From: Nitrosopumilus sp. | GTDB taxonomy: Archaea; Thermoproteota; Nitrososphaeria; Nitrososphaerales; Nitrosopumilaceae | Direction of reading: 5' to 3' | Length of the DNA stretch: 64,000 nucleotides | NCBI GenBank assembly: GCA_965205215.1 | Contig: OZ242041.1 | Coordinates: forward strand, 1,984,001 to 2,048,000 | Shown here: positions 4,425 to 23,792 of the stretch, in pieces | How positions within the stretch are numbered: position 1 is the first letter of the stretch | Layout of the letters: the number at the start of each line of letters is the position of its first letter | Notes under the pieces: generated by a model | Seen by the model: only the letters and a program-made list of their open reading frames with translations | Told to the model about the DNA's origin: nothing | The model's database searches: none | Program-made: the position numbers and the translations under genes

Positions 4425-5549
4425 TCATGTGTCAATATAACTTCCATCCTCATCAAATAATGGGCATGCGACTCCGCCATAGTGGTTGAACATCTCGTTC
4501 ATAATGGAGGATGCAACTTGTTCGTACTTTGTTTCAAGAAAACGCACCGGATGTTCCCTCTCAATCATTATATTGTCCAAACGTTCTACTTCATATTGTA
4601 TGCTCCTCCCATCTGTAGTAGGAATTGCGCTTTTAGATGAAGATGTCAATACTGCAATTATTTTCACATCTCCAAAATAATTATAATGTGACAGTATTTT
4701 ATTGGCAAACTGTAGCATCTGCATTGTTTTTTGTGCTAGAGCCACGTACGGAAGAAGAATTATATCATTACTTTGAGAACTATAGTGACATATGTATTGA
4801 ACACATCCGTTTCTATGAATTTGTAATTTGTCAGCCTCATGATATGCGGAGATTAATCCGTGAGAAAACGGTTTCAATGCACTGTTTGGTAGACTACGAC
4901 TTCTAAAATCCTTGTCAATCCTGATGGATTCCAACATTTTAATTTGGTCATAGTCTGACGCATCAACAAGTCGATGTCTTATATTTAACGGAATGACTAT
5001 GATGCTTGCAGTTACCTCACCCTTTTTAGAACCCGGTAATATGTCCTGAATGTAATTGCCGAGTTGGTCGTAATGAGAAAAGCGGCTTCTGTAACAATCC
5101 GCGACATCCATTTCGCTCATTTCCACAGATCCGTACTGGGACCGTCTGTAGAATTTTTTGGTCATATTACTCTGATGAGGCTTTAGGTGACTGTCTGGAA
5201 CACGTACGAGCAGGACGCCTTTCTTACTGTCTGGAATTGGTATGAGTTTTGTCTTTACGTCCAGTCTGGGGACGACGTTGGATAAGACAATCTGCTCAAG
5301 CCGTTCTTTGTTCAATTCTTCCATGTCCAGTCCAGGTATATCTGTTGGGTGTCCACCCTTTCCGGACTCCTTGACGCCGAAAACGATATGCCCGCCGCGC
5401 ACGTTGGCGAATGCGCACACGTGTTTGACCAGATCCACATCGCGTATCATCATCTCCTTATAGTCCAAAATTTCGCTTTCGTCAATCTGATCTGTTAAAA
5501 GAGCATGAATGTCTGCATATGTGATTTCGGACATATCCTTCCATATCAT
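4425..5549 (-). CDS. Schlafen/AlbA_2 domain protein
   Basis: ESEILDYKE, VCAFANVRGGHIVFGVKE, KPHQ...YRRS; markedly lower GC than flanks. Confidence 0.85.
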   Translation of the reverse strand: MIWKDMSEITYADIHALLTDQIDESEILDYKEMMIRDVDLVKHVCAFANVRGGHIVFGVKESGKGGHPTDIPGLDMEELNKERLEQIVLSNVVPRLDVKTKLIPIPDSKKGVLLVRVPDSHLKPHQSNMTKKFYRRSQYGSVEMSEMDVADCYRSRFSHYDQLGNYIQDILPGSKKGEVTASIIVIPLNIRHRLVDASDYDQIKMLESIRIDKDFRSRSLPNSALKPFSHGLISAYHEADKLQIHRNGCVQYICHYSSQSNDIILLPYVALAQKTMQMLQFANKILSHYNYFGDVKIIAVLTSSSKSAIPTTDGRSIQYEVERLDNIMIEREHPVRFLETKYEQVASSIMNEMFNHYGGVACPLFDEDGSYIDT

Positions 5550-5700
5550 GTAACAAGACTTGCGATTGTGGTATTTTAATGCCCTTTTCGCGCTTCGGAT
5601 AACTTCCCAAGCCCTTCAACTCTGGCCATGCTAAATTCACTCCTAAAGATAGACACGGCCTGATGATTTTGCGCCTAACGTAGCATGACCCTCACTAATG

Positions 5701-7191
5701 TCATGACCTTGGAATCTTGCGCCTGATCAGGAATCTTTCGCCCGGTAGATCCTTTATCAGTTCCCATCCTTCCGCTGTGCCCGCCAGCAGCTCGGCCTCG
5801 CCATCTGCGATCCTGCTCTCAAAGGGAGACTTTCTGGGGGGCCTGTCATTGGCGGCGGTAACCGAGGCTGCATCTGCCACCCGTATCGCCGTCGTCGTCG
5901 TTTCCCCCGCGCCGGAGGCATCCTTGTCCTCCTCCAAGGCAGTCGCGGATGCCGTCGAGCTATCATTGGGTCCCGCGCTATCGTCCTGCGCGGATGCCGC
6001 TGCGGCCTGTCGTGGCGACGGTGGTGACACATCCCTTGCCCCGTACAGAACCCCGCCTGCAAGCATGTCGTCGGGGTCCAGCCCGTACATCTTGGCCTGC
6101 TGCCTCCACATCCCGATCAGCATCTTGCGCCTGTCCTTTTCCGAGTCATATGTGGCGTCGGTGGACAGGAACGCCTGGCTTTGCTCAAACGCGCGCCTCA
6201 TGTCTTCCGTCATCTGCTCCGTCAGCCTGCCCTTGTTGGTGGTATACCTGGCTTCCATGTCCCCCTTGTGCCCCATGAAGAACTGCCGGTACGCGTGCGT
6301 CATGCACCCGTGGCTTTCTGCAATCAGGAGCTGGCTGTCAAAGTACGCCCTCAGCGCATAGGGGCGCGCCCTGAGCACGCTCCAGATTGCGGGGCGGGCG
6401 ATGGCGCCCAAGGCGGTGGTGGCCACGAACCCGTTTCCCCTATCGTCAAGCTTGCGCCACCCCTTGAGGCGGTATCCAAAGGCCACCGTCACGAGGGGCG
6501 AGCCGGGCCTCAGGACCTCGCCCCGGGCCATCCTCTCCCGGAGGTACCCGAGCACGTACTTGCAGCCCTCCTCGGCCAGAAATGTAAAGTACTTTTTCCG
6601 GATCTTGCTCAGCTGCGGCCTCACTATAACCATAGCGGGGATCCTGGAAAAGCGGGTGTGGCCGCCGTCGAGCACCAGGTCGGGCAGGTCCGATAGCACC
6701 AACCCGTCACTGCGGTCTGCAAGCCCCATGACCTGCGGCCTCACCCCGGCAAAGGCCATCATGCTTATGATTGCCCTGCTGCGCGGGTCTGCCGCGTCCA
6801 GTATCTTTTTGAGCTGTTCCTTGTCCGGCACCTTTTCGTCCTGGATGCTCACCGGCACGTCGGAGTTTGCGATCTTGATCTTGCGCTTGATCTCTATGTG
6901 GTTGTATTCCAGCCAGGACTTTACGGCGGCCAGCATCCCCTTGGTGTACCCGGGGGCGTACCTTTTCTCCTCCATCCACGACACGTGGTCAAGCAGCGTG
7001 TTTTCGGCCCTCATCGGGTCTCTCCTCCCCATCTTTGCCAGCTCGTGCGGCGTCATCCCCACCCTGTCGCAGAACAGGTTCAGCCGCCTGAGCCTGACGG
7101 TGCACGTGAGCATGCTGGACCTACGCAGGTTGTCGTGCCACCGCCTCACGTCCGGATCACTCAGCAGTAGGGTCGGGGGATCTTTTGCCAT
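5701..7191 (-). CDS. int: Tyrosine recombinase/integrase, copy 1
   Basis: Catalytic R (GVRPQ), K (SKIRK), YxLR (PYALRAYF), MGH and Y (EARYT); start set at the ATG shared by both copies (frame is open to 7434). Confidence 0.88.
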   Translation of the reverse strand: MAKDPPTLLLSDPDVRRWHDNLRRSSMLTCTVRLRRLNLFCDRVGMTPHELAKMGRRDPMRAENTLLDHVSWMEEKRYAPGYTKGMLAAVKSWLEYNHIEIKRKIKIANSDVPVSIQDEKVPDKEQLKKILDAADPRSRAIISMMAFAGVRPQVMGLADRSDGLVLSDLPDLVLDGGHTRFSRIPAMVIVRPQLSKIRKKYFTFLAEEGCKYVLGYLRERMARGEVLRPGSPLVTVAFGYRLKGWRKLDDRGNGFVATTALGAIARPAIWSVLRARPYALRAYFDSQLLIAESHGCMTHAYRQFFMGHKGDMEARYTTNKGRLTEQMTEDMRRAFEQSQAFLSTDATYDSEKDRRKMLIGMWRQQAKMYGLDPDDMLAGGVLYGARDVSPPSPRQAAAASAQDDSAGPNDSSTASATALEEDKDASGAGETTTTAIRVADAASVTAANDRPPRKSPFESRIADGEAELLAGTAEGWELIKDLPGERFLIRRKIPRS

Positions 7192-7287
7192 TCTGTTCCA
7201 GCTGTTAAAATTCGAATCTGATTCAAGAGGAGGCTTGCGTTTCGCGCCTACTCCTGCTGCCGACGAGGTTCTTTTGGATTTAAGCAT

Positions 7288-7433
7288 TGGAGAGCCGGGT
7301 TTGCCTGCCTGAGCTCCCACGAATCCGGTGCCTTGCGCGGGGCCCAGCTTGTTATCACGCGCGTTACGCCCGGACATAGTGCTGTTGCGTTTGCCAGAAT
7401 TCTTGGCACGTGCACTAAGCATCATCGGGCCCA
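7288..7433 (-). repeat. Conserved 146-bp integrase leader / element end, copy 1
   Basis: 141/146 identical to 15765-15910; identity stops abruptly after ATCGGGCCCA. Confidence 0.9.
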
Positions 7434-7686
7434 CTGTATATAATCACTTAATCAGCACAGTAACGACGAGAAGTCAGATCACAAGCCATCCGACGGGAAG
7501 CAGGGCCGCGCACTGGGCTCAACCCGCAGCGGCCTGTCCTGCCGCCGTGCTATCGCTTCCACCGCAGAATACTCCCGGGCATCCCAGGACGCCTGAGAAA
7601 CAGGCGCGATGGGACGATAATTCGGGCACGAGGACGGGAGGCAAAGTGGGAGATCGGGATTACGCGCCGCTGGTATCCAACTGTCA

Positions 7687-9267
7687 CTAACCTCCGGCTG
7701 CAATTCGGGGGGCACAGTCGGGCACGCGCGGAAAGAACTGATCCCACGGCGAGAACGGCGGCGACGCCACGACCAGGCATACAAAGTCATCTGCCGAGGT
7801 TACGAAGACCTTGTGGGCCGTGCCGCCGGGAATCATCAGATAGTCGCCTTCCCCTACTGCAAAGCCAGACGCGGAGGACGGATCGTTCGGATCCCATGTC
7901 ACTATCACGGCCGTCCCGCCCAGCACCACATACGCCTCATCGGACGTCAGATGGTAGTGGCCGTCCGTGGCCGTGCCGGGATTGAACGTCGCCTTTGCGA
8001 CCGAAAACGACCCCAGGTAATCCGGGCCGAACCGCCGTAACCCGCCCCACGGCCTGGGCGCGTCCGTCATGTCCCCGGATTTGTGCAGGCGGGGCGGGCT
8101 TGCGGGTGCTGCTGTTGCGGCCGTCCCGGCGGCTGCAGTCCTCTCGGACAGTCGTGAGACATGCCTCTCAATGTCCGCGTCCATCCTGTTGATGCCCTCG
8201 GAAAGCTCCTCCGGCTTGGTTTTGATCACAGTCAGAACTATCAACGAGAATACGAGATCGATTGCGTCGGCGGGCGTTCCGTTTGACAGCCTCAGGTTGA
8301 TCGGGTGCGCGGAGCACAGTATCGTGACCGTCTTGCGCGCCCCCGTCTTGGCCATCCTGCACACCAAGTCGTCACCGGCCTTGGTTATGTCGATCCTGGC
8401 CCTGTTTAGCGTGAGGGACGCAGGCCTGCACATAACCTCGGATATCTCACCGTGCCCGCTGCCGGCGTTGAGCACCATGGCGCCGTCCTTCATTATGAGG
8501 AACTGCTCCACGCCAAGGCACGAACCGTCGCCGTCGGGCGTGCATGATATTATGATATCCTGCTCCGGCAGAACCTTGTTCATCTCCGACACGCCCAGGG
8601 AGCGAAACCCGTGGGCCGACGCGAGCGCCCTTTTCGTGGGATCGGTGTCTGCCACCGAGACCGCGCCTCCGTGTGACCTGCAGGCCGCGGACATGCCGCT
8701 GCCCACGCTCCCGTACCCCAGAACCAGGACGTTCTTGCGCGCCAGCGAGACGGACCTTCGATTGACCAGTGCCGAGAGCGCTGCCTCCGGAGTGGCCATC
8801 GAGTTTTCTATCCCCAGCTTCAGCGCGGATCCGGCCGCGCTGACCACGGGCCAGGGAGGCGCAACGCCGCCCGGGCCGTCGCCGCCAAGCCGGAATATCC
8901 CGTTCGTGGTCTGCTCTATGCTGAATATCCCGGGCTTGACGCCCCACTTTCCATCGTACAGCGCGCTTATTCTCATGCCGTCCTCTATGATTACGTCTAT
9001 TTTCGGCGCGACCCCCGGAACGTCCCCGTAGGAGATCACCTCGCACCCCTCTAGGCTGCGGGCGCCCTCCACGCATGCCACGTCTGCGCTGTACCCTATC
9101 GGGACGTAAAAGACCGACGCGCCCAGGTGTAGCAGTGTCCGAACCAGCTCAACCGTTGCCTCCGTGGCATGCGTGCACAGCAGGATGTTCCTGCCCGCAA
9201 GGCAGCCTGCCCCGGACTTCCCTCGGATCCCCTCCAGGATGCGCATTCGGGGGCGTGCGGGGATCAC
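7687..9267 (-). CDS. Divergent S-adenosylhomocysteine hydrolase-like protein fused to a C-terminal cupin
   Basis: CTHATEAT, IIEDG, EQTTNG, K..IEN, NAD motif LGYGSVG, PINL; cupin RPWG...HYH...E...IPGGTAH; GTGA overlap with upstream gene. Confidence 0.8.
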   Translation of the reverse strand: MIPARPRMRILEGIRGKSGAGCLAGRNILLCTHATEATVELVRTLLHLGASVFYVPIGYSADVACVEGARSLEGCEVISYGDVPGVAPKIDVIIEDGMRISALYDGKWGVKPGIFSIEQTTNGIFRLGGDGPGGVAPPWPVVSAAGSALKLGIENSMATPEAALSALVNRRSVSLARKNVLVLGYGSVGSGMSAACRSHGGAVSVADTDPTKRALASAHGFRSLGVSEMNKVLPEQDIIISCTPDGDGSCLGVEQFLIMKDGAMVLNAGSGHGEISEVMCRPASLTLNRARIDITKAGDDLVCRMAKTGARKTVTILCSAHPINLRLSNGTPADAIDLVFSLIVLTVIKTKPEELSEGINRMDADIERHVSRLSERTAAAGTAATAAPASPPRLHKSGDMTDAPRPWGGLRRFGPDYLGSFSVAKATFNPGTATDGHYHLTSDEAYVVLGGTAVIVTWDPNDPSSASGFAVGEGDYLMIPGGTAHKVFVTSADDFVCLVVASPPFSPWDQFFPRVPDCAPRIAAGG

Positions 9268-10025
9268 CGCGCCCGCCTCACTGCTGTCAGTTCCCACTGC
9301 CTCCACTCCCCGGTTTTCGGGGGCAGCCGCCTCTCCGTCCTTTCAACCGGCGTACCCAGAGGATCGAATCCCGCCCGGCGGAGCCCCGACTCGAGCTCGC
9401 GCCTTGCAAAGAAATGTATGCGGAGCCCTTTCTTGGGGCCCGCTGAATAGACGACGGTGAACCCGCCATAGTCGTTTCTCTCCACAACCTCGTGCGGGTG
9501 GTAGACGTCCGTGCCGGCCGAATTTACGCGCAAAAACAGCAGCCCGCCGGGCCGCAGTACGGCCGCGGCCCGCTCAAGGTACCTCTGGGCCGTTCGCCCG
9601 TCGCCGTGCTGGAACGTCTGTATGGACACGAGATAGTCCACCGCCCCCGGCATGTCACAACTGCCGTCAAGAAAGTTCCCGCGGGACACGCGCCCCGTAT
9701 GCTCCGGGTGCTTCTGCAGCAGGCTGCGTATGCCGGACTCTGACACGTCGATACCGTGGAGGCCGCCGCATGCAGCGGCCAGCGGCGCGTAGTTGCGCCC
9801 GCTCCCGCACCCGACGTAGACGCCGCGCCCGCCCGTTTGGCCGCGCTTGCGCAGCTCGCCTATGATCACGCGGACGAACGGCACCGGGGGCTCGGCCTCG
9901 TACCTGCCGGACTCGTACTCGCGGTCCCAGCACTGCGCGATGTCTTCACTGCCGTCGCCCTCTCCGCGTCCCATTCCACAGCTCTGGCCGCACGTTGCAT
10001 AAAACCCCTCCTTCTCACCCATCAA
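9264..10025 (-). CDS. Class I SAM-dependent methyltransferase
   Basis: YVGCGSGRN motif I, GIDVS, VLRPGG. Confidence 0.88.
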   Translation of the reverse strand: MMGEKEGFYATCGQSCGMGRGEGDGSEDIAQCWDREYESGRYEAEPPVPFVRVIIGELRKRGQTGGRGVYVGCGSGRNYAPLAAACGGLHGIDVSESGIRSLLQKHPEHTGRVSRGNFLDGSCDMPGAVDYLVSIQTFQHGDGRTAQRYLERAAAVLRPGGLLFLRVNSAGTDVYHPHEVVERNDYGGFTVVYSAGPKKGLRIHFFARRELESGLRRAGFDPLGTPVERTERRLPPKTGEWRQWELTAVRRAR

Positions 10026-10104
10026 TGGCCTGGGCTATCATCCTCCGTCGCCGTCGTCACAATGCTCAACTGCATTATTCCTAGGTGGTGGCGAACCGCA
10101 TCGT

Positions 10105-10245
10105 TGGCATCTTGCTGCCGTCTACCCCTCGCCGCCACTCCCCAGCCTCTGGGGCCCGCCAGCCCTCCGATCCTTCTACGATGACGGCCGTCATCAGGCC
10201 GAACTCCGCCCAGCGTAGTCTTGACTCGAGCTCACGTTTTGCAGA
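10105..10245 (-). pseudogene. Relic duplicate of the methyltransferase 3' end
   Basis: SAKRELESRLRWAEF...VEGSEGWRAPEAGEWRR aligns to FARRELESGLRRAGF...VERTERRLPPKTGEWRQ; shared DNA GACTCGAGCTC and CCACTCCCC. Confidence 0.75.
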
Positions 10246-10376
10246 CCCCAAACTGATCGAGTTCAGACGGCAGGAAGAAAGCGGGCTGAGGAAAATATTG
10301 TTCATGCGTTAATATTCACGGTCCTATTGCCAATTCGTGACCTTCTCTCAAACGCACCGCCGCAAGCGCCGTTTTT

Positions 10377-10841
10377 ATGCCTGTGTGCAGCCCACAAAAC
10401 ATGTCAACAACGCCCGACGACATCACCGTACTGGCCAGCACCATAAAAAAGCTGAATAGCATTACAGACGAGCTGGTACAGAAAGTAGCCACGCTGGAGA
10501 CTGAAGTCGAGGGGCTGAAAGACCTCCTGAAGGACGGCACCATTACGGCTACTAGAGACGGAGGGACTGCACAGCCCGAACCCAATATCGAGGTAAACGT
10601 CATATCGTGCCAAAAATCCTCTGGGGATGTCGAAGTCAAGGGAAGCATAACCAACACCGGAGACACGACCCATACAATCAGGTACATCGCTTTTCTGACG
10701 GACTCCAACGGGAACATGATAACGTTTGAGGACGGCACCGTATACGATCTCGATCCGGGGCAGACAGAGTATGTCACTGAATGGATCGAGCACAGTGGCA
10801 AGTGGCACGAATGCGGCCTGAAAGTCACGGGCATCGAGTAG
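10377..10841 (+). CDS. Coiled-coil plus FxLYD-like Ig domain protein
   Basis: VKGSITNTG...FLTDSNGN...LDPGQT. Confidence 0.7.
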   Translation: MPVCSPQNMSTTPDDITVLASTIKKLNSITDELVQKVATLETEVEGLKDLLKDGTITATRDGGTAQPEPNIEVNVISCQKSSGDVEVKGSITNTGDTTHTIRYIAFLTDSNGNMITFEDGTVYDLDPGQTEYVTEWIEHSGKWHECGLKVTGIE

Positions 10842-10943
10842 AAGCGACATATTCCTCATCACCCTCCAACTTTCCAATCCCCGTGGCTTGAGGGTCTGAG
10901 TGTGTAAAAATTATAACGACAGTTCTGATTGTCGGCAATCCTA

Positions 10944-11189
10944 CTACTTCTTTTTTAGGTCTCTCATCTTTATAGTGAGAGATTTGAAGTATTCATACGG
11001 CAACTGAATCCGATTCATTCTTTCTTTCACATACGTCTCAGTCATCTCATCAAACCCAATGATGACGGACGCCCCCTGCTTGTTATGCGTGAACCAAACG
11101 ATCTCATTGGATTCGTCTGAGACCTGCATTTCAAACCCCAAGTTTTCAAGGGCAATTCGGACAGTAGAAAAAGAAAAAATTGCCATCAA
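10944..11189 (-). CDS. HicA-like toxin (divergent)
   Basis: 81 aa, ALENLGF...WFTH, C-terminal helix; overlaps the HicB-like gene. Confidence 0.55.
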   Translation of the reverse strand: MMAIFSFSTVRIALENLGFEMQVSDESNEIVWFTHNKQGASVIIGFDEMTETYVKERMNRIQLPYEYFKSLTIKMRDLKKK

Positions 11190-11398
11190 TTCCGCCTCTG
11201 TAGTCGTGCCTTACCCTTGATCAGGATGGCGTGCGGGTCTTTGGGGTATTTCTGAGCATACAACTTGGCCGCTGCATGTATCGCATCGTCCAACTTGGAT
11301 TCGTCCTTAGAAGAGACGGAGATCATGGCATTCGAGTCACATGTGGCTATAAAGCCGTCAGGATCTCGGATTACAGTATATGTCAGATCATTCTTCAT
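11186..11398 (-). CDS. HicB-like antitoxin (short)
   Basis: YTVIRDPDGFIATC...SVSSKD...AIHAAAKLY fits the HicB partial RNase H fold. Confidence 0.6.
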   Translation of the reverse strand: MKNDLTYTVIRDPDGFIATCDSNAMISVSSKDESKLDDAIHAAAKLYAQKYPKDPHAILIKGKARLQRRN

Positions 11399-11590
11399 GG
11401 CACAATGTTGGAATATGCCAATTTAAGCTTTTCAAAGAACAATTTGTCAGATTTCGTGCCTACTAATCAACATTCATGCCCAAGATGTTGATTATACTCA
11501 TACACCCGTATGTGGTATGTGGTAAGGTGCCTGCTTCTGGTCGGCGCCGGATACCAGTCAACATTTAAGGCTCCCAGCCGCAACACCCCC

Positions 11591-11830
11591 GTGAACACGC
11601 GCAAATATGCCGTCTATTTCGACAAGCGGAACACACACATCAGCATCCACGGCCCGGGCTACATCCAGAGACGAAAACGCGGGGGAATACACGCGTACTA
11701 GAAGAGCGGAGAATGGAGGTTCTTTGCGGAGGAAGGTGAGGCGCGGGAGTACGCAAGTGTGGTGTCCGAGAAAGAGCATATCGGCCATGTGGAGGACTGC
11801 CAGCTCTGCAAAAACCGGGGCCGGTTATAA
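11591..11830 (+). pseudogene. Small Zn-binding hypothetical interrupted by an in-frame TAG
   Basis: KYAVYFDK..ISIH...GGIHAY*KSGEWRFFAEEGEAREYA...DCQLCK; stop at 11699-11701. Confidence 0.5.
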
Positions 11831-11938
11831 GAACGCGGGCACCGCATCTCAGAAGGTCAAGCGGGCAACTGCTGTGTCCATATCACGAATTGTGACATAC
11901 CCGATCATTAAATTGTTAAATATCCCCCACCGATCATC

Positions 11939-12193
11939 GTGACAATGAGTTCAGGTATATCATCAGACATGATGGAAATACTCATGAAGAAGCTCTTGGG
12001 TTGTAAGCAACTCAGTGACTCGGTAAAGACAGAAGACAAACAGCGCGTACTGGATGCGTTGATAGAATGCGCCATGACAGATATTCAGTTGATGCGCCGC
12101 GCGCCTGGCATGGACCGAGTGGGCCTGGTACCCGTCATGAGTGACGAAGAAGAGGCAGAATTTAGGAAAAATCTGCAAAGGATCTGTACTTAA
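11939..12193 (+). CDS. Hypothetical protein
   Basis: 84-aa ORF with AT-rich upstream region. Confidence 0.45.
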   Translation: MTMSSGISSDMMEILMKKLLGCKQLSDSVKTEDKQRVLDALIECAMTDIQLMRRAPGMDRVGLVPVMSDEEEAEFRKNLQRICT

Positions 12194-12361
12194 GATCTGC
12201 CTTAATTTTTCACAAAACTCTTTAAGGATTTTTTTAACCTTCGGTGAAATCTCTTCCATGGCCTGTGTAGGCACTATTCGTATTTAGTAATATACACGGC
12301 TGGATAGTTCCATTATAATACGATAGCCAACACAGATCGCAAGTGCCGGGGTGTAGTTAAT

Positions 12362-12736
12362 ATGGCGTTGGACAGGAGGAGTGGTAAGATGGTGGGGGAT
12401 AACAGGGCGCCAGCTGACGAGTATGCGACGGTATTTAGCGAACTCAACAAGATTATCGAGGCAAGCATGAAGACGACGGAGGAGCTCAATGCAGCGGTTA
12501 AACCATATGTAGAGATGATGGAGAAGATCGAGGCGTCGACTAAGCCATATGTAGAGATGATGGAGAAGGCCGAGGCGTCGACTAAGCCATATGTAGAGAT
12601 GATGGAGGAGCTCAATGCAGCGGTTAAACCATATGTAGAAATGATGAAGAAGGCCGAGGCGTCGGTTAGCGAATTCAAGAAGCGTATGATGGAGCATATG
12701 GAGAGGATGGATCGGCTCGCGACATCGTTTGACTAA
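12362..12736 (+). CDS. Helical 14-aa tandem-repeat protein
   Basis: Four units xxxxxxKPYVEMM(E/K) with a 42-bp period. Confidence 0.65.
   Translation: MALDRRSGKMVGDNRAPADEYATVFSELNKIIEASMKTTEELNAAVKPYVEMMEKIEASTKPYVEMMEKAEASTKPYVEMMEELNAAVKPYVEMMKKAEASVSEFKKRMMEHMERMDRLATSFD
12482..12667 (+). repeat. 42-bp coding tandem repeat (about 4.4 units)
   Basis: CCATATGTAGA(G/A)ATGATG recurs every 42 bp. Confidence 0.9.
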
Positions 12737-12931
12737 TCCAGTGGCGCTTGTAGAACGGTCAAATGACTAGGGTACGACACTTTTAGTAGCCTCTCGGTCG
12801 GTCAGCCCACCGCCGCGTTATGCAGGATGTTTCGTTGCTCTCTCCCCATGCCTAGCAACCGAATTGTAAGCAGAACCAAAATGAGTAATGCTTAATTTAC
12901 GTTATGCCATAGAGTATGGTAGAATGGGAAC

Positions 12932-13174
12932 GTGGAACCACACATGGATCTCACCAGCATCCTAAGGTCCCTGTGCCTGACAAGGGACGACTTTACGGTC
13001 TCCACCCGTTGCAGGCTTAAGGGGCACGTAGTAAACGGGAAGATACTGGACGGCCTTGAGCCGGGCAACGACTGGGAAGCCGCGGAGTGCGAAAAGTGCC
13101 ACTTTCCAGTCTACGTGCGTAGAGATCCAGAAAACAAGGAATATTACATCATAGTAGAGGAACTATATGAATGA
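12932..13174 (+). CDS. Small Zn-ribbon-like hypothetical protein
   Basis: CRLKGH...CEKC; overlaps the next gene. Confidence 0.5.
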   Translation: MEPHMDLTSILRSLCLTRDDFTVSTRCRLKGHVVNGKILDGLEPGNDWEAAECEKCHFPVYVRRDPENKEYYIIVEELYE

Positions 13175-13800
13175 GCACGCCCCGAACGGGTGCAGTCAAG
13201 CGCAGGGAGTTCTACGTACAGGCCGTCCACATCCTGTTTGCCATAATACTGGCACAGAGCTTTATACTGGCCTCACAGGTCATGATACCGATCCACGCCA
13301 TACTTGAGCTGGACAACCGCGAGACAGTCTCCACGCTTATGTTCTCATATCTGCTGATCGTCTTGGGGTGGATAGGGTACGCTAGGACCACATCCATCAG
13401 CCCGTACAGGGACACGGCTTGGAGCGTAGCGCGGTTCGTCCTAGACCTTGTAATACTCTTCGGGTACTTCTACCTTCTCCAGATCTCCCAGACGAAGAAC
13501 GTGGGGGACTTTCCATTGGTTGTAATGGCAATATCCCTCATGTACATGCTGTCCGACAACGTAAAGCAACGGGAACGTCCATTGCAGGATGAGCGGTGGG
13601 TCATACGCAGGAGGGGTACCACCAAGCTGCTGTTCATAGGAGTCGCTCTGGTCGCGGTGATGCATGACGACGGTATGTTTGATGACGTGTCGGCATGGAT
13701 TTGCGTTGACCCGCATATCCTAGTCATCGGTATCCTTACCCTCCTAATAGTACTGCATGGGATCGGCAGGTGGCAGGTGGCAGAGAAGCACCATCTTTAA
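13171..13800 (+). CDS. Multi-pass membrane protein
   Basis: About 6 hydrophobic segments. Confidence 0.7.
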   Translation: MSTPRTGAVKRREFYVQAVHILFAIILAQSFILASQVMIPIHAILELDNRETVSTLMFSYLLIVLGWIGYARTTSISPYRDTAWSVARFVLDLVILFGYFYLLQISQTKNVGDFPLVVMAISLMYMLSDNVKQRERPLQDERWVIRRRGTTKLLFIGVALVAVMHDDGMFDDVSAWICVDPHILVIGILTLLIVLHGIGRWQVAEKHHL

Positions 13801-14159
13801 TTCTTACCTTGACGTGTCCTTACATAACAAGCCAAATGCTACAAGAGTAGTTATGGCAAAGAACATGACTGGTCGATCAGACATAAGGCAGCCTATTATG
13901 GTTTTATCGGAAGTGCAAAATAACAAGGTTATGGTCAAACAAATCATGAATATTATGAAAAATGCCCCCCAAATTTTTCTCCGTGTCACTGTGCCTGTTT
14001 GCCTAGGAGAGATTATTTATAGATTTTAAGTACTGGTTCCGTTTCCAATTAGTGACCTAATGCCAATTTGGACTAGATTAGGCACGGCATAGATGCAGGT
14101 TGGGCGCAGGTCACGAATCGGAGGCAGAACCCGGTTTAGCTGCCCTGCTACCAATGTCA

Positions 14160-15668
14160 CTACCTTGGAATCTTGCGCCTGATCAGGAACCTCTCGCCGG
14201 GCAGATCCTTTACTAGGTCCCATCCTTCCGCGGTGTCCGCCAACAGATCGGCCTCACCGTCTGCAATCCTGCTCTCAAAGAGAGACGGTCTGGGGGCCTT
14301 GTTATCGGCGGTGACTGCAACCGAGGCTGCGTCTGACGCCTGTATCGATGTCGCCTGTATCGCCGGCACCGCCGTTTCCCCCGCGCTGGGGACACCTCTG
14401 TCCGCCTCCAAGGCAGTCGCGGGTGCCACCACGTCATCATTGATCCCCGCACTACCGTCCTGCGCGGACGCGGCTGCGGCCTGCCGCGGCGGCAGCGACG
14501 ACGGTACACCCCGCGCCCCGTCCAGAGTCCCGCCCACAAGCATGTCGTCGGGGTCCAGCCCGTACATCTTGGCCTGCTGCCTCCACATCCCGATCAGCAT
14601 CTTGCGCCTGTCCTTTTCCGAGTCATATGTGGCGTCGGTGGACAGAAATGGCTGGCTCTGCTCAAACGCGCGCCTCATGTCCTCTGTCATCTGATCCGTA
14701 AGCCTGCCCTTGTTTGTCGTATACCTGGCCTCCATGTCCCCCTTGTGTCCCATGAAGAACTGCCGGTACGCGTGCGTCATGCACCCGTGGCTCTCAGCGA
14801 TCAGGAGCTGGCTGTCAAAGTACGCCCTCAGCGCGTAGGGGCGCGCCCTGAGCACGCTCCAGATTATGGGACGGGCGATGGCGCCCAGGGCGGTGGTGGC
14901 CACGAACCCGTTTCCCCTCTCGTCAAGCTTGCGCCACCCCTTGAGATGGTATCCAAAGGCCACCGTCACGAGGGGCGAGCCGGGCCTCAGAACCTCGCCC
15001 CGGGCCATCCTCTCCTGGATGTACCCGAGCACGTACTTGCAGCCCTCCTCGGCCAGAAATGTAAAGTATTTTTTCCGGATCTTGCTCAGCTGCGGCCTCA
15101 CCACCACCATCGCGGGGGTCCGGGAAAAGCGGGTGTGGCTGCCGTCAAGCACCAGGTCCGGCAGGTCCGAGAGCACCAGTCCGTCACTGCGGTCTGCAAG
15201 CCCCAGTACCTGCGGCCTCACCCCGGCAAAGGCCATCATGCTTATGATTACCCGGCTCCTCGGATCCGCTGCATCCAGTATCTTTTTGAGCTGTTCCTTG
15301 TCCGGCACCTTTTCGTCCTGTATGCTCACCGGCACGTCCGAGTTTGCGATCTTGATCTTGCGCTTGATCTCTATGTGGTTGTATTCCATCCAAGACTTTA
15401 CGGCGGCCAGCATCCCCTTGGTGTACCCGGGGGCGTACCCTTTCTCCTCCATCCACGACACGTGGTCAAGCAGCGTGTTTTCGGCCCTCATCGGGTTCTT
15501 TCTTCCCATTTTCGCCAGCTCGCGCGGCGTCATTCCCACCCTGTCGCAGAACAGGTTCAGCCGCCTGAGCCTGACGGTGCACGTGAGCATGCTGGATCTG
15601 CGCAGGTTGTCGTGCCACCGCCTCACGTCAGGATCTCTCAGCAGTACGGCCGGGGGATCTCTTGCCAT
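14160..15668 (-). CDS. int: Tyrosine recombinase/integrase, copy 2
   Basis: Core nearly identical to copy 1 with the same catalytic residues; the low-complexity C-terminal linker diverges. Confidence 0.88.
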   Translation of the reverse strand: MARDPPAVLLRDPDVRRWHDNLRRSSMLTCTVRLRRLNLFCDRVGMTPRELAKMGRKNPMRAENTLLDHVSWMEEKGYAPGYTKGMLAAVKSWMEYNHIEIKRKIKIANSDVPVSIQDEKVPDKEQLKKILDAADPRSRVIISMMAFAGVRPQVLGLADRSDGLVLSDLPDLVLDGSHTRFSRTPAMVVVRPQLSKIRKKYFTFLAEEGCKYVLGYIQERMARGEVLRPGSPLVTVAFGYHLKGWRKLDERGNGFVATTALGAIARPIIWSVLRARPYALRAYFDSQLLIAESHGCMTHAYRQFFMGHKGDMEARYTTNKGRLTDQMTEDMRRAFEQSQPFLSTDATYDSEKDRRKMLIGMWRQQAKMYGLDPDDMLVGGTLDGARGVPSSLPPRQAAAASAQDGSAGINDDVVAPATALEADRGVPSAGETAVPAIQATSIQASDAASVAVTADNKAPRPSLFESRIADGEADLLADTAEGWDLVKDLPGERFLIRRKIPR

Positions 15669-15764
15669 TCTGTTCCAGCTGCGCAGATTCAAAGTAGGTT
15701 TAAGACGCAGCCTTCGTTTCGTGCCTCCTCCTGTTGCCGGCCGGGTTCTCCGGGATTTAGTCGC

Positions 15765-15910
15765 TGGAGAGCCGGGTTTGCCTGCCTGAGCTCCCACGAA
15801 TCTGGTGCCTTGCGCGGGGCCCAGCTCGCCGTCACGCGCGTTACGCCCGGACATAGTGCTGTTGCGTTTGCCAGAATTCTTGGCACGTGCACTAAGCATC
15901 ATCGGGCCCA
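15765..15910 (-). repeat. Conserved 146-bp integrase leader / element end, copy 2
   Basis: 141/146 identical to 7288-7433. Confidence 0.9.
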
Positions 15911-16256
15911 TTCTCGTCTTTTCTAGGTCGTTTTTAGTTCGAATTTCGACGTCCGGATTCATACCTGCCAACGTACAGATTCAACTGGAGTGGATTTAAC
16001 ATGATGTTGATGCCTGCAGGCCCAAACGTCCCGTATGCCGCATTCCACATGTTGGCAATGCCCGCACGCTACACGTCACAATGAATTTTTTGGAGTATCT
16101 GCCTGTCACCCCTGCGGGTCAGAAGCTTGAGGTGTGGCAGTTTGGATCACCCACTCAGACACTACGGCGCGAAGCCCACGCGTTATCAGAAGTCACTCCA
16201 TCGCCGCAACGCGACAAGAAGATACACGTGTTCAGACCATGATGCACGCCTGTAAA

Positions 16257-17186
16257 CTATGGTATGGATGCTCGGAATACTTCAATGACGGGATCGGGGC
16301 GTGTAAAATTGAATTGTAGCAGATAGTTGTTCTCGTCTTGCAGGCTCGTAAAGGCCACCTCATCGTCATTCTCCAGGACCATGAAAAAATCCCCCTCCCA
16401 CTCAAAGAATTGCTTTGGTACTGACAGTTCCACCCCGCCGCTCCCTTGGGAGTGAATCTCGAGCCGCAGGGTGTTCCAGTCAGGGTGGTACCGCATGTCA
16501 CTCAGGAGGCCTTTAATCACCGTATAGGAGATGCGGTGATCCTTTTCGCGCGTCCTGACGTTGACCGAATCGCTTACTGTCGCGTTGCCGTTGTCGTCAA
16601 ACACCACCGGATACCACGACTTTTTGACGGCGGTCTCCGGATACACGCAGGCAAATTTCAGACCGGGTCGCAGAACCAGCAGGTGGTCAGGGTTGTTGCA
16701 GTAGAGTATCTGGCCTGCGGTTCGGTCCTGGATCTGCTTGTAAAGCGACTTTTCTAGGCAGCTGCTGTCGACTGATCTACTTACAATGTGAGGCTCACCC
16801 GTGGGCGGATACGTGTAAAGCAGATCAACAGAAGTAGAACCTTGCACGGAGATCACATAATTGAAGAAACAGTCATCCTCCACCAGCTCACTTTGCAACT
16901 CTAAACCTTCTCCCACCGCCACCATCGGGTCATAAACCGCCGCATCGTCATGCGTTGTAAATATTGGGAAATTCTTTGGAATTTTTATCAAGAGTGGTTC
17001 TTCCCCAGTGTTCGGAATTAACGTAAAGAACAACCCTTCGTCGGGCACAAAGTCAACATTTTCCACAACGTTTGGTTCTATCAAAATCCGGAATGTCTCA
17101 TCTTCCGTGCTCGGAATGGATTCTTCGATACCTGCAACCAAGATGATCGCATAAAAAAGAAAGTTCAACGTAAATCCAATTCCCAA
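16257..17186 (-). CDS. Secreted/surface thaumarchaeal protein
   Basis: N-terminal hydrophobic signal; C..P.HLLVLRP...ACVYPETAVK..W motif; beta domains resembling PEFG-CTERM proteins. Confidence 0.6.
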   Translation of the reverse strand: MGIGFTLNFLFYAIILVAGIEESIPSTEDETFRILIEPNVVENVDFVPDEGLFFTLIPNTGEEPLLIKIPKNFPIFTTHDDAAVYDPMVAVGEGLELQSELVEDDCFFNYVISVQGSTSVDLLYTYPPTGEPHIVSRSVDSSCLEKSLYKQIQDRTAGQILYCNNPDHLLVLRPGLKFACVYPETAVKKSWYPVVFDDNGNATVSDSVNVRTREKDHRISYTVIKGLLSDMRYHPDWNTLRLEIHSQGSGGVELSVPKQFFEWEGDFFMVLENDDEVAFTSLQDENNYLLQFNFTRPDPVIEVFRASIP

Positions 17187-17485
17187 ACGGGCAGTAGTCG
17201 TATATATCGTGATCGATTAATTTGTTCTTGAGAACCGAGTTGAACTGTAGTTCTGGCAATACTGCAGCCGGTGTACCGAACCGTTGTCCACTCGCAGCGT
17301 CATGCCACCAACAAAAGACCGTTGCATGCAACTGCCTTCCCCCCCCCCCTCCCTCTTCCCCCCAACCGCACTTGCGCCCAAAACGCGGACGGAAAAGGCA
17401 GACACAATCACACAATGTGCGGGCATCCGATAACGCACGGCAATCAGCTGTCGAAGTTTTAATACATCATACGCCCCAGAGGGGC

Positions 17486-18157
17486 ATGCGCACGGTTACA
17501 ATCGAAGACTTGGTCGGGAGGCCGCTCAGCGGTATAGAAGAGAAGAACTCCCCCGGCACGGTCTACGTGCAGGGGCCCATGGACATCCCGATCCCGCCGC
17601 CGAGGATCTCCGTGGTGGGTACAAGGCGCCCCACCACCGAGGGCGTCAGAGAGGCCCAAGCCCTGGCCGGGATGCTCGCGGACAACGACGCCACTGTGGT
17701 AAGCGGCCTTGCCTCCGGAATAGACACCGTATCGCACAAGAGCGCCATCGAGCAGGGGGGCCGGACCGTGGCAGTACTTGGTACCCCGCTGAACGTCGCA
17801 TACCCGGCGTCAAACCGTGATCTACAGAAGCTCATTGCAGACTGCCACCTGGTCGTATCCCAGTTTCCTGCCGGGCGCCCCGTCACCAGGAAAAACTTTG
17901 TCATGAGGAACCGCACCGTGGCGCTGATATCGGACGCCAGCGTGATAGTCGAGGCGGGAGAGGGCAGCGGCACCAGGCACCTGGGATGGGAGGCCATCAG
18001 GATTAAGAGGCCCCTGTTTGTGTGCGGGCCCGCAGCAAGGCGGCGGCCGAGATGGCTGGAGGAGATGGAGGGTTACGGCGCGATCACACTTGAGAATTAC
18101 GAGGAGATACTAGACGCGGTGTCACGTAACACCAAGTCAATAGACGTGTTTGAATGA
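17486..18157 (+). CDS. dprA: DprA/Smf (Rossmann domain only)
   Basis: VVGTRRP, VSGLASGID..SH, AVLGTPL..YP, FVMRNRTVA, VEAGEGSGT. Confidence 0.9.
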   Translation: MRTVTIEDLVGRPLSGIEEKNSPGTVYVQGPMDIPIPPPRISVVGTRRPTTEGVREAQALAGMLADNDATVVSGLASGIDTVSHKSAIEQGGRTVAVLGTPLNVAYPASNRDLQKLIADCHLVVSQFPAGRPVTRKNFVMRNRTVALISDASVIVEAGEGSGTRHLGWEAIRIKRPLFVCGPAARRRPRWLEEMEGYGAITLENYEEILDAVSRNTKSIDVFE

Positions 18158-18279
18158 TCCCCCCCATTCCGTATGCCGGCAGGCGCGCCAGACAACTCCC
18201 ATGCATACCGAGCAGGCAAAAGAAGACGTCGTGACTTTCCGTGGATTCGACTACGGCCCGCCAGCTTTTCGACGCACAG

Positions 18280-19194
18280 TCACCTTGCCGATACGGTGTC
18301 AGATACCTGGATCACCTTGGACACGTCACCGTCTATGTAATAGTCGCACGACTTCATGCCGGGCACGGGCTCGGCCAACCCGCGGCCGCACAGCAGCAGG
18401 TGCATGCGCTTTAATCGTCTGGACACCGGGTATATGCTGTCTGCAAAAAAGTTCAGCCCCTCTGCAGTGCTGGAGAACACGACCGTTATGAGCGGCCCGT
18501 CCTTGGGGCTCCACACCTTGTCTGCCAGCCTCTCAAAGTCAAGGTCAAACAGCACGCCGGCGGCCTCTGACATGTCCCCGAGCTCAAAGACGGCCCACCC
18601 GCCTGAGCGGTATATCGAGCAAGCCGCGCGCGACACGGGCTCGCTGCGAGAGTCGGCCGCGATCACAAGCGCGCTCCTTCCCTTCCCCTGGCCTGCGCGC
18701 ACGCCCGTATCGCGGCCCTCTATCTCATGCAGGGAGCGCGAGATTACCCCTCCCAAGTAGTTCTGCTCGGCCGCCCCGATCTTGCCTGTCTCGTACATGT
18801 CTAGTATGGCGTCTGACGCGGGCAACACCACGTCCAGCACCAAGCTGGCAGGGGCGGCCCCTGATCTGACGCAGTTGCGGACCAGCTGCACGGCTCTCGA
18901 CTCTGACGCGTCCCTGACGCACTCCATGTATGCGGACGCGGCCCTAAAGTAGTCGTCCGGAAACGCAAAGGACTCCTGCCCGGGGCGTAGCGACCACAGC
19001 GTGACGTTGCCCATCTCCCTCCGATCCAAGGTGCCGTCTGCTGCAAGCATCCTGAGGTACTTGGATACGGTGGTGCGGCTCATCCCGAGCGCCCGGGCCA
19101 GATCCACGCCGGACATGCCCCCCCTGGCGTCCGCATCCCCCAGCGCCTTTATGAGCCGCCTCCGCACGTCGTGTAGGGGGTAGCCGCGCGCCAT
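18280..19194 (-). CDS. HTH regulator with B12-binding-like domain
   Basis: N-terminal wHTH (GVDLARALGMSRTTVSKYL); cap region with YETGKIGAAEQ; Rossmann-like C-terminus. Confidence 0.75.
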   Translation of the reverse strand: MARGYPLHDVRRRLIKALGDADARGGMSGVDLARALGMSRTTVSKYLRMLAADGTLDRREMGNVTLWSLRPGQESFAFPDDYFRAASAYMECVRDASESRAVQLVRNCVRSGAAPASLVLDVVLPASDAILDMYETGKIGAAEQNYLGGVISRSLHEIEGRDTGVRAGQGKGRSALVIAADSRSEPVSRAACSIYRSGGWAVFELGDMSEAAGVLFDLDFERLADKVWSPKDGPLITVVFSSTAEGLNFFADSIYPVSRRLKRMHLLLCGRGLAEPVPGMKSCDYYIDGDVSKVIQVSDTVSAR

Positions 19195-23000: not shown

Positions 23001-23792
23001 ATGGCAGGTCCAAGGTTTGGCAGGGACGTCACCGTAAGCGGCAATGCCGCCATAGGCGACAACGTCACCATAGGCGACAACGTCACCATAGGCGACAACG
23101 CCGTCCTAGAGGGCGACATTACCGTAGGCGACGGCACAAGAATAGACCGAGGAGCAGTCATACGCGGCAACGTCACCATGGGCAGAAACAACTGGATACA
23201 CACCTACAGCGTGATTGGAGCCGTGCCCCAGCATCTTGAGTATGCAGGAGTCGACGTGCAGGACTCGTCGGACAGGCTAGGCGGCATACGGATAGGCGAC
23301 GCCAACACCATACGCGAATTCGCCAGCGTGCACCTGTCCACCCACAAAAGCGGAACGGTCATAGGTTCGGGCTGCTACATAATGACATACACCCACATAG
23401 CGCACGACTGCCACCTACACGACCGAGTCACCATGACAAACAAGGCCACCCTGGGGGGACACGTCGAGATATTCGACGACACAACCCTAGGGTTTGGCAA
23501 CAACATACACCAGTTCTGCAAGATAGGCTCCCACGTAATGCTCGGCATGGGCAACAACATAACCAAGGACGTGCTCCCGTTCGCGCTCATCAACCGTAAC
23601 GCGTTCACGAGGATCAACCGGATCGGAATGGAGCGCTCTGGAATCAAGAAAGACGACATAGACTGCATAGAGTCGATGTATGCCACCGGGGCGTGGAAGG
23701 ACCTCCCGCCATCGTCTGCGAGCAGGTACGCCGAAGAGATAAGGGGGTTTGTAAAGGCGTCCGAACGCGGCCTGTACGAACCAGCATTCTAG
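23001..23792 (+). CDS. LpxA-like hexapeptide-repeat acyl/acetyltransferase
   Basis: IGDNVT repeats, PQH, IREF, HIAHDC, GGHV, HQFCKIG, NRIGMERSG. Confidence 0.85.
   Translation: MAGPRFGRDVTVSGNAAIGDNVTIGDNVTIGDNAVLEGDITVGDGTRIDRGAVIRGNVTMGRNNWIHTYSVIGAVPQHLEYAGVDVQDSSDRLGGIRIGDANTIREFASVHLSTHKSGTVIGSGCYIMTYTHIAHDCHLHDRVTMTNKATLGGHVEIFDDTTLGFGNNIHQFCKIGSHVMLGMGNNITKDVLPFALINRNAFTRINRIGMERSGIKKDDIDCIESMYATGAWKDLPPSSASRYAEEIRGFVKASERGLYEPAF

Follow-up and report, generated by a model that had tools for sequence, protein, structure and literature searches.

Here we report that a 64-kb stretch of Nitrosopumilus sp. DNA (contig OZ242041.1, positions 1,984,001-2,048,000; the whole of this stretch is referred to below as the window) very probably carries the right-hand portion of a series of integrative elements, stacked in tandem behind the 3' end of the tRNA-Ile(GAT) gene of the chromosome. 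The evidence centres on two integrase genes, A and B, each of which begins with a near-identical block of 146 bp. This block is the integrase-proximal arm of an attachment (att) site together with the 5' stretch of the integrase reading frame, and it lies at the att junction of stacked elements, designated here E1, E2 and the E3 remnant. Coordinates are those of the window unless marked as genome (G000, 2.1 Mb). The features that carry the argument are as follows.

7288-7433, minus strand: 146-bp block, copy A; the first 46 codons after the core (MMLSARAKNSGKRNST...) of the integrase leader open reading frame (ORF), and the integrase-proximal att arm.
15765-15910, minus strand: 146-bp block, copy B.
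5701-7434, minus strand: integrase A; frame open from the core (GTG at 7434, ATGATG at 7425-7420), with the called short form starting at ATG 7191 (496 amino acids (aa); P0003, to which residue numbers below refer).
14160-15971, minus strand: integrase B; 603-aa ORF from TTG 15971 in the arm of the neighbouring element, through core B, with a short form of 502 aa from ATG 15668.
7422-7433, plus strand: att core A, TCATCGGGCCCA, the last 12 nucleotides (nt) of tRNA-Ile(GAT); junction of E1 (left) and E2 (right).
15899-15912, plus strand: att core B, TCATCGGGCCCATT, 14 nt identical to the tRNA-Ile end extended by its next 2 genomic nt; junction of E2 and the E3 remnant.

Both integrase ORFs lie on the minus strand, co-oriented at a spacing of 8477 nt, in keeping with the roughly 8.5 kb given by an earlier, sequence-only reading of this DNA, and the blocks sit at their 5' ends. 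Pairwise comparison reproduced the other measurements of that reading as well: the blocks are identical at 141 of 146 positions, the final 79 nt are free of differences, identity collapses abruptly after ...ATCGGGCCCA (7433 and 15910), and the approximately 100 nt past the block diverge far more strongly (10 differences in the 50-nt bin 7310-7261 and 14 in the bin 7260-7211). The five differences, at block positions 80, 81, 82, 84 and 108, all fall outside the stems that the reading had named, which do occur in both window copies, and they mostly change amino acids as it had stated (three non-synonymous codons and one synonymous). The conservation of the block is not exceptional, given that 5 differences in 146 rank in the best 6.6% of 1574 sliding windows across the gene pair; the longest identical run between the copies, 109 nt at 6168-6060, lies within the catalytic region. 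Homology between A and B is confined to the reading frame (approximately 5694-7433 and 14150-15910), with a 3' border that is equally sharp, and 169 nt differences plus several indels, distributed as a mosaic, separate the two integrase copies.

The sharp end of identity is explained by the derivation of the core from a tRNA gene. ARAGORN, run on the whole genome, places tRNA-Ile(GAT) on the plus strand at genome 1897618-1897694, 86 kb left of the window start and approximately 94 kb upstream of the block border, and this gene ends in TCATCGGGCCCA. The 11-mer CATCGGGCCCA has exactly three plus-strand sites in the 2.1-Mb genome, namely the tRNA-Ile 3' end, 7423-7433 and 15900-15910, and the core repeats (12 nt at A, 14 nt at B) share the orientation of the tRNA. 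The 'CCA' with which the block terminates is the acceptor-stem end GGGCCC followed by the discriminator A of tRNA-Ile, and not a CCA tail. Identity ends where it does because a recombination junction is located there, and what lies beyond is whatever neighbouring element or host DNA follows. As the block matches a host gene, the repeat is an att duplication, the plainer account that the sequence-only reading had set against its own proposal. That reading had also held that the block is not a recognisable tRNA. This stands as far as a cloverleaf is concerned, as ARAGORN found no tRNA in the 64-kb window and an Rfam scan of 5000-17000 at E <= 1 returned nothing relevant (its sole match, mir-143, is a chance one), but it does not extend to the last 12 nt, the only tRNA-derived part of the block, which are the 3' end of tRNA-Ile.

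Two further candidates were discarded. A reverse-strand copy of the 11-mer at genome 2005608 (window 21608), considered as an inversion partner, lies inside a long ORF, and about one chance match of this kind is expected. The block was also considered as a degenerate tRNA 5' half, since a 5-bp stem closing a 7-nt loop is spaced approximately as in a tRNA; U33, the D arm and the T arm are missing and ARAGORN was negative.

Comparison with related genomes identifies the array as an insertion. When a 20-kb query around tRNA-Ile was compared with 30 genomes of the same genus, synteny was kept 5' of the tRNA and lost within 15 nt of its end. Four same-genus genomes were fetched, and in three of them (L126, L127 and L129) the gene approximately 126 nt downstream of tRNA-Ile is a homologue, in the same orientation, of the window ORF 18280-19194; in the fourth (L128) the homologue of this ORF is not the best match there. 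The next gene of the relatives being found here at 18280-19194, approximately 104.5 kb have been inserted between tRNA-Ile and its usual neighbour, and the three genomes provide the empty sites that the sequence-only reading had suggested looking for. Both genes of the E3 remnant are absent between tRNA-Ile and the next gene in the relatives. In five complete genomes of the genus, two 20-kb stretches sampled from E1 have no matches other than to scattered multi-copy genes, and 9.4 kb near the left end of the island (genome 1898268-1907694) are 94% identical to a second copy at genome 630153-639528. The tRNA-Ile-derived core and the insertion relative to relatives together bear out the earlier suggestion that the block is an att arm or element end of tandemly stacked elements.

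From these data the array would read, from left to right, tRNA-Ile, core, E1 (93.7 kb), core A, E2 (8.5 kb), core B, the E3 remnant (approximately 2.3 kb) and the host gene. Integrase A would occupy the far (right) end of E1 and integrase B the far (right) end of E2, each pointing away from its own core on the strand opposite to that of the tRNA. The junctions were checked in contigs assembled from four public runs (X1 and X2 from one study, X3 from a second study, and X4, a sponge metagenome). Contigs of X1 and X2 bridge cores A and B, and a contig of X3 bridges core B, in each case without differences; with the junctions bridged identically in this way, misassembly is ruled out. A contig of X4 follows the block to 7433/7434 and then diverges, as a recombination junction predicts. 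The one joint to span both integrases, running from 6258 to 14740 in X4, has a 21-nt side and 4 extra letters, and was regarded as a paralogue or a chimera from another organism.

The association with tRNA ends extends to the relatives of these integrases. For ten close integrase copies, we aligned the 480 nt that precede the conserved DPDVRRW motif. When close homologues are read on the strand of the tRNA, their leaders start with 12-16 nt of a tRNA 3' end:

L033 leader start: CTCATCGGGCCCA, tRNA-Ile 3' end.
L034 and L055 leader start: CCCTTTAGACCCG, tRNA-Lys 3' end.
L035 leader start: CCCCGTGGGCCCA, tRNA-Val(TAC) 3' end.
L037 leader start: CTCACTCGGCCCACCA, tRNA-Val(GAC) 3' end.
Leader start of the third close copy in the genome studied here: CCCTTCGGGCCCA, tRNA-Met 3' end.

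This third copy lies 24.3 kb from tRNA-Met and the repeat is present at both ends, which delimits an element of 24.3 kb, and two other integrase copies of the genome are found directly behind tRNA-Lys genes. In loci L036 and L038 the integrase is immediately preceded by a tRNA gene, and the 3' end of the L036 tRNA-Ile (...TCTCATCGGGCCCA) matches the border sequence in the window. The N-terminal motif was present in 47 of 80 loci scanned, 28 of which have a co-directional tRNA just upstream of the integrase. The tRNA-Ile 3' end is antisense in L033 (9994-10030) and in the window, and sense in L036 (7388-7430), where the leader directly follows the intact tRNA. Insertion in either orientation might be permitted by the palindromic nature of the central GGGCCC (TGGGCCCA in the window).

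The distribution of the integrase family is patchy and multi-copy. Among 151 genomes of the taxonomic family (a tally that includes G077), 37 have a match; nine matches fall in the genome studied here, and none of the nine other same-genus genomes in this census sample has one. Of 8000 candidate proteins scored, 764 matched at E <= 0.001, and their names, where present, are Nitrosopumilus, Thaumarchaeota or 'site-specific integrase'; the closest homologue, P0004, is 83% identical. Other genomes or contigs also hold two or three close copies (P0004 with P0006, P0007 with P0010, P0019 with P0031, and L033-L035), so that stacking or multiple insertion is common in the subfamily. A scan of viral contigs with an 18-sequence alignment found no relative, and the 80 loci recovered from metagenome contigs are all <= 56% identical, too distant to test the block.

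In the subfamily found in the window, the att site is part of a reading frame that has been kept open. A 234-nt leader in frame with the integrase is present, and with the start codon of the distal arm described below the frame extends across the core. The integrase frame is free of stops in all ten leaders, against 1-7 stops in the other two frames; the leaders are approximately 40-45% diverged from each other, and a stop-free leader frame arises in shuffles at 0.03-0.30 per sequence. The sequence-only reading had counted translation of the block as an integrase N-terminus among the findings that would tell against it, and it is as an N-terminal extension that the frame is kept open in all ten leaders. 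The block would then double as att arm and, if translated, as part of an N-terminal extension that is basic and of low complexity.

The distal arm is a conserved module of approximately 140-170 nt beyond the core. It is found directly after tRNA-Ile(GAT), tRNA-Val(TAC) and tRNA-Met(CAT), all three of which end in GGGCCCA; it also flanks core B on the right and, in L033 and L034, precedes the integrase. Copies outside the window lie at genome 751530-751672, 941528-941672, 981486-981595 and 1276253-1276369 (decayed, no core), and the presence of module copies at different tRNAs suggests several related elements or their remains. The module is made up of an inverted repeat (GAGTTCGA..TCGAACTC), TTAAAT, a TTG or ATG start and 21 codons, and it holds TTCGAA motifs resembling the tRNA T-loop. 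Eight arms, from this genome and from L033 and L034, were compared. TTAAA[AT] is located 28-30 nt ahead of the aligned TTG/ATG start in seven of them, with none in L033, and the start codon is 62 nt from the core hexamer in six (the hexamer is GGGCCC, or GGGTCT in L034). In L033 the two are 63 nt apart, and the frame is recovered through a 1-nt deletion in the leader. The frame from the distal-arm start is open into the core in seven of the eight arms, and in window copy B, L033 and L034 the att core is predicted to lie within one continuous ORF from the distal-arm start to the integrase. At tRNA-Ile, tRNA-Val(TAC) and tRNA-Met the arms carry the TATA box, start and 21 codons and read into the tRNA, and the integrase body is at the far end of the element, 93.7 kb from tRNA-Ile for integrase A and 24.3 kb from tRNA-Met for the third copy. 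Two features of the window belong here:

15913-15999, minus strand: distal att arm (P' arm) of the E3 remnant; TTAAAT at 15999-15994, TTG at 15971-15969, and 21 codons in frame with integrase B.
7221-7226, minus strand: candidate internal TATA box; TTGAAT approximately 30 nt upstream of the short-form ATG, with TTAAAT in 8 of 10 homologues.

We consider it fairly probable that this arrangement constitutes a split gene with two product forms. In the circular form of the element, the integrase gene would span the att core, with the distal arm supplying a TATA box, a start approximately 24 nt further on, and 21 codons whose frame continues across GGGCCC (Gly-Pro) to the block. On integration into the tRNA, the promoter and first codons would be separated from the remainder of the gene, as in the 'suicidal' integrases of the SSV type. 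A tandem neighbour could restore the lost start, and integrase B may be such a case, its 603-aa ORF being completed by the arm of E3; integrase A has no distal arm because the left end of E2 is an approximately 100-nt remnant of an L038-type leader. A second TATA-like box approximately 30 nt before the conserved internal Met may give a short form from the integrated state, and the retention of TTAAAT at this distance in 8 of 10 copies, silent positions included, suggests an internal promoter. The identity of the att core, the insertion seen against relatives, the tyrosine-recombinase fold, the open frame and the conserved arm are shown; translation of the extension, use of the promoters and the existence of two protein forms are what we infer from sequence. 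A more far-reaching version is possible, if doubtful: that the att core occupies codons 22-24 of this lineage's own gene, unrelated by sequence models to those of SSV, pTN3 and pT26-2; that integration acts as a directionality switch from a long form, made only from the circle or a tandem junction, to a short form made from the internal promoter; that tandem arrays re-arm the upstream integrase, as with integrase B; and that the palindromic core can be used either way (L033 versus L036).

A number of observations weigh against these interpretations. Leader differences are flat over codon positions (0.42/0.39/0.46, with 0.41/0.44/0.46 in the block), as opposed to 0.25/0.13/0.43 after the internal Met, and between A and B the first 75 codons contain 20 non-synonymously and 2 synonymously changed codons. 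The internal Met is where the gene caller begins P0003, the calls for some homologues are short as well, and the start codon is TTG in six of the eight arms. With respect to the array, the 93.7-kb E1 may be composite and not a single element, and E2 is atypical in that its left end is the remnant of another leader type and not a canonical distal arm. The right end of the array is placed only to 18157-18280, with a weak att-like remnant, and no circular or empty-site joint linking the cores was found in the contigs of the four runs, in which rare forms are dropped.

The flat codon profile and the mostly non-synonymous changes between A and B also favour the principal rival to the split-gene interpretation, namely that the block is a purely non-coding att arm with sites for the integrase or accessory proteins, and that the integrase is always made from the internal Met (496 or 502 aa). 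The calling of P0003 from that Met fits this account, as do the TTAAAT box ahead of the internal ATG and the short motifs AAACGCAAC and CGTAACGCGCG that recur among homologues. In most distant family members, moreover, the conserved N-terminus begins only 50-120 nt from the tRNA end, so the extension is dispensable for the core enzyme. A non-coding arm would nevertheless have to accommodate ten leaders without an in-frame stop despite their divergence, a +1/-1 indel pair in L033 that preserves the frame from the aligned start codon, and spacings from TATA box to start and from start to core that are fixed in six to seven of eight arms. We therefore judge an exclusively non-coding block to be unlikely, and its positive content is compatible with a double role as arm and coding sequence.

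Two other explanations have much less in their favour. The sequence-only reading had proposed a structured nucleic-acid element, either an att site folded as a single strand, as in integron attC and CTX attP, or a cis non-coding RNA partnering the recombinase. The position of all five differences outside the stems is in line with this, and a structure written from those stems pairs in 61% of cells over nine homologues, two of which are the window copies from which it was derived, compared with 26-39% in slid controls and 57% in column shuffles (7 of 500 reach 61%). Without the two source rows, however, pairing drops to about half of the cells, and for helices 1-3 it stands at 49-62%. Some double change is seen in 13 of 25 pairs, but roughly half of the homologues no longer form most of the stems (again nine sequences, two being the structure's source); in L033 the stems are replaced by non-pairing sequence. 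Nor does the block fold unusually well: RNA of the integrase strand reaches a minimum free energy of -50.2 kcal/mol, where dinucleotide shuffles give -52.3 +/- 3.7 (z +0.57; 141 of 200 fold as well), and for DNA the two strands give z +1.26 and +0.18. With no Rfam match in 5000-17000 and a sharp end already accounted for by the tRNA-derived core, there is no support for a conserved structure in the block, a small residue aside, and we regard the folded-element proposal as highly improbable. Equally improbable is that the twin copies arose by recent local gene duplication, gene conversion or an assembly artefact without integration of an element. Homology is indeed restricted to the gene itself, and the block is among its better conserved parts, so that homogenisation of the att-proximal part between neighbours is possible. 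Against this, A and B differ by many substitutions and indels in a mosaic, contigs from independent runs bridge both junctions, the borders coincide with the tRNA-derived 12-nt repeat, and the whole interval is missing at this site in relatives.

The integrases themselves are recognisable chiefly by their modelled structure. An AlphaFold model built with 41 homologues has a mean pLDDT (predicted local distance difference test) of 74.1, and its top Foldseek matches in the PDB are XerA (5hxy_B, E 7.4e-6), the integron integrase VchIntIA (2a3v, E 2e-5) and Cre; on this model, the integrases have a two-domain tyrosine-recombinase fold like that of XerA, Cre and IntI. At the sequence level the NCBIfam XerA match is weak (E 1.8e-4), as are the PHROGs integrase matches (E 0.003-0.2). 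No Pfam family, PF16795 included, was found at E <= 0.1 for either window integrase (P0001, P0002), and phmmer and an 18-homologue profile against PDB sequences gave nothing useful and no profile match. Residues invariant in the 41 homologues are R151 (AFAGVRPQV), K196, Y278, R281 (RPYALRAYF), H308 (MGHKGD) and Y316 (EARY), which, placed by eye, we tentatively take to be the catalytic set R..K..H-x-x-R..H/W..Y of tyrosine recombinases; the first His would be Tyr. The approximately 45 C-terminal residues of both integrases (5701-5850 and 14160-14310) form a conserved small beta-rich domain after a disordered, variable linker. This domain (PFESRI..AEGWDL..DLPGERFLIRRKIPR) has a pLDDT of 67-87 and invariant G475, W476 and R490, and is unusual among tyrosine recombinases.

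The remaining features of the array and its flank are listed below.

7437-7533, plus strand: left end of E2, 78% identical to the leader that lies after tRNA-Val(GAC) and before the integrase in L038.
7687-14159, strand not assigned: E2 cargo, comprising a NAD-binding/cupin fusion (7687-9306, minus), a methyltransferase (9264-10025, minus) and low-GC hypothetical ORFs.
16257-18157, strand not assigned: cargo of the E3 remnant, comprising a hypothetical 309-aa ORF (16257-17186, minus) and a DprA/DNA_processg_A-like gene (17222-18157, plus).
18243-18263, plus strand: possible degenerate remnant resembling a tRNA 3' end, GGATTCGACTACGGCCCGCCA, at the expected right end of the array (weak).
18280-19194, minus strand: host flank gene, homologue of the downstream neighbour of tRNA-Ile in three same-genus genomes.

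No integrase follows 7437-7533, and this stretch is therefore considered the remnant of an oppositely oriented element. Within the low-GC cargo of E2, a 137-aa ORF (12284-12697, minus strand) contains four and a half tandem copies of a 42-nt unit at 12471-12680. In E1, a gene with a Schlafen/AlbA_2 domain (4425-5549, minus strand) is found directly downstream of integrase A; this gene and the DprA-like gene are typical accessory or defence-type cargo. Elsewhere in the window, an 18-nt periodic repeat (GTCACCATAGGCGACAAC-like) is present in at least 6 copies at 23026-23183. Genes beyond the tRNA-Ile neighbourhood in the relatives (L126-L129) map to distant sites in G000, at approximately 1.626 Mb and 0.153-0.175 Mb, indicating that the chromosome has been rearranged near the island.

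An att junction between tandem tRNA-integrated elements is of a kind already catalogued in Thaumarchaeota. The part of PMC6563490 drawn on here gives thaumarchaeal att repeats of 8-25 bp (median 17) that are mostly tRNA 3' ends, with known arrays at the same site, integrated elements that reach approximately 98 kb, and one SSV1-like split integrase in a Nitrososphaera element. What may be new is the att-inside-ORF module and its restoration in tandem arrays; a search of open-access text found no paper describing this arrangement in Nitrosopumilaceae. It would represent a family unrecognised by Pfam with a two-armed att module, the far arm of which holds a TATA box, a start and 21 codons through the tRNA-derived core. 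Should the extension be translated, these integrases would represent a further, separate case of the 'suicidal' split-gene architecture, which PMC8371274, in the part consulted, credits to a single origin. The distal-arm module and the antisense tRNA end at the leader start also offer a simple rule for delimiting the left and right ends of elements, of use in the genomes of ammonia-oxidising archaea, where att repeats are too short for blind detection.

Like integron attC and CTX-phage attP, the sites described here are used by tyrosine recombinases, and an integron integrase is among the structural matches of the protein; unlike those sites, which depend on a conserved imperfect hairpin, the block has the folding energy of its shuffles and does not keep its stems. 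The elements belong to the known class of tRNA-integrated elements of Thaumarchaeota; the cryptic integrated elements and proviruses of Krupovic et al. 2019 (PMC6563490, in the part drawn on here) share the tyrosine recombinase, the tRNA 3'-distal target, short repeats (here 12-16 nt) and re-use of the site. A distal arm that carries the promoter and first integrase codons, and a frame that runs through the core, are not described in that part. The SSV-type integrases (SSV1, pTN3 and pT26-2) are described in the relevant part of PMC8371274 as sharing PF16795 and one origin, with att sites of 40-50 bp, mainly in hyperthermophiles. As in that type, the core lies inside the ORF, an N-terminal piece is split off (here together with the promoter), the target is a tRNA and a neighbour can supply the missing part. 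In contrast to the same description, no match to PF16795 was found, the att is 12-16 nt, approximately 21 codons are removed and the hosts are Nitrosopumilaceae-like, and on the first three of these grounds we do not file the integrases as members of the SSV type; a conserved internal Met with its own TATA-like box could, furthermore, keep the enzyme expressible. Type II (pNOB8/lambda-like) integrases are resembled in the upstream tRNA followed by a complete short-form gene, seen in 28 of 47 loci and in the intact short forms of A and B, but differ in that, in the subfamily of the window, the frame is carried across the core by an in-frame leader of 234 nt together with a distal-arm start codon.

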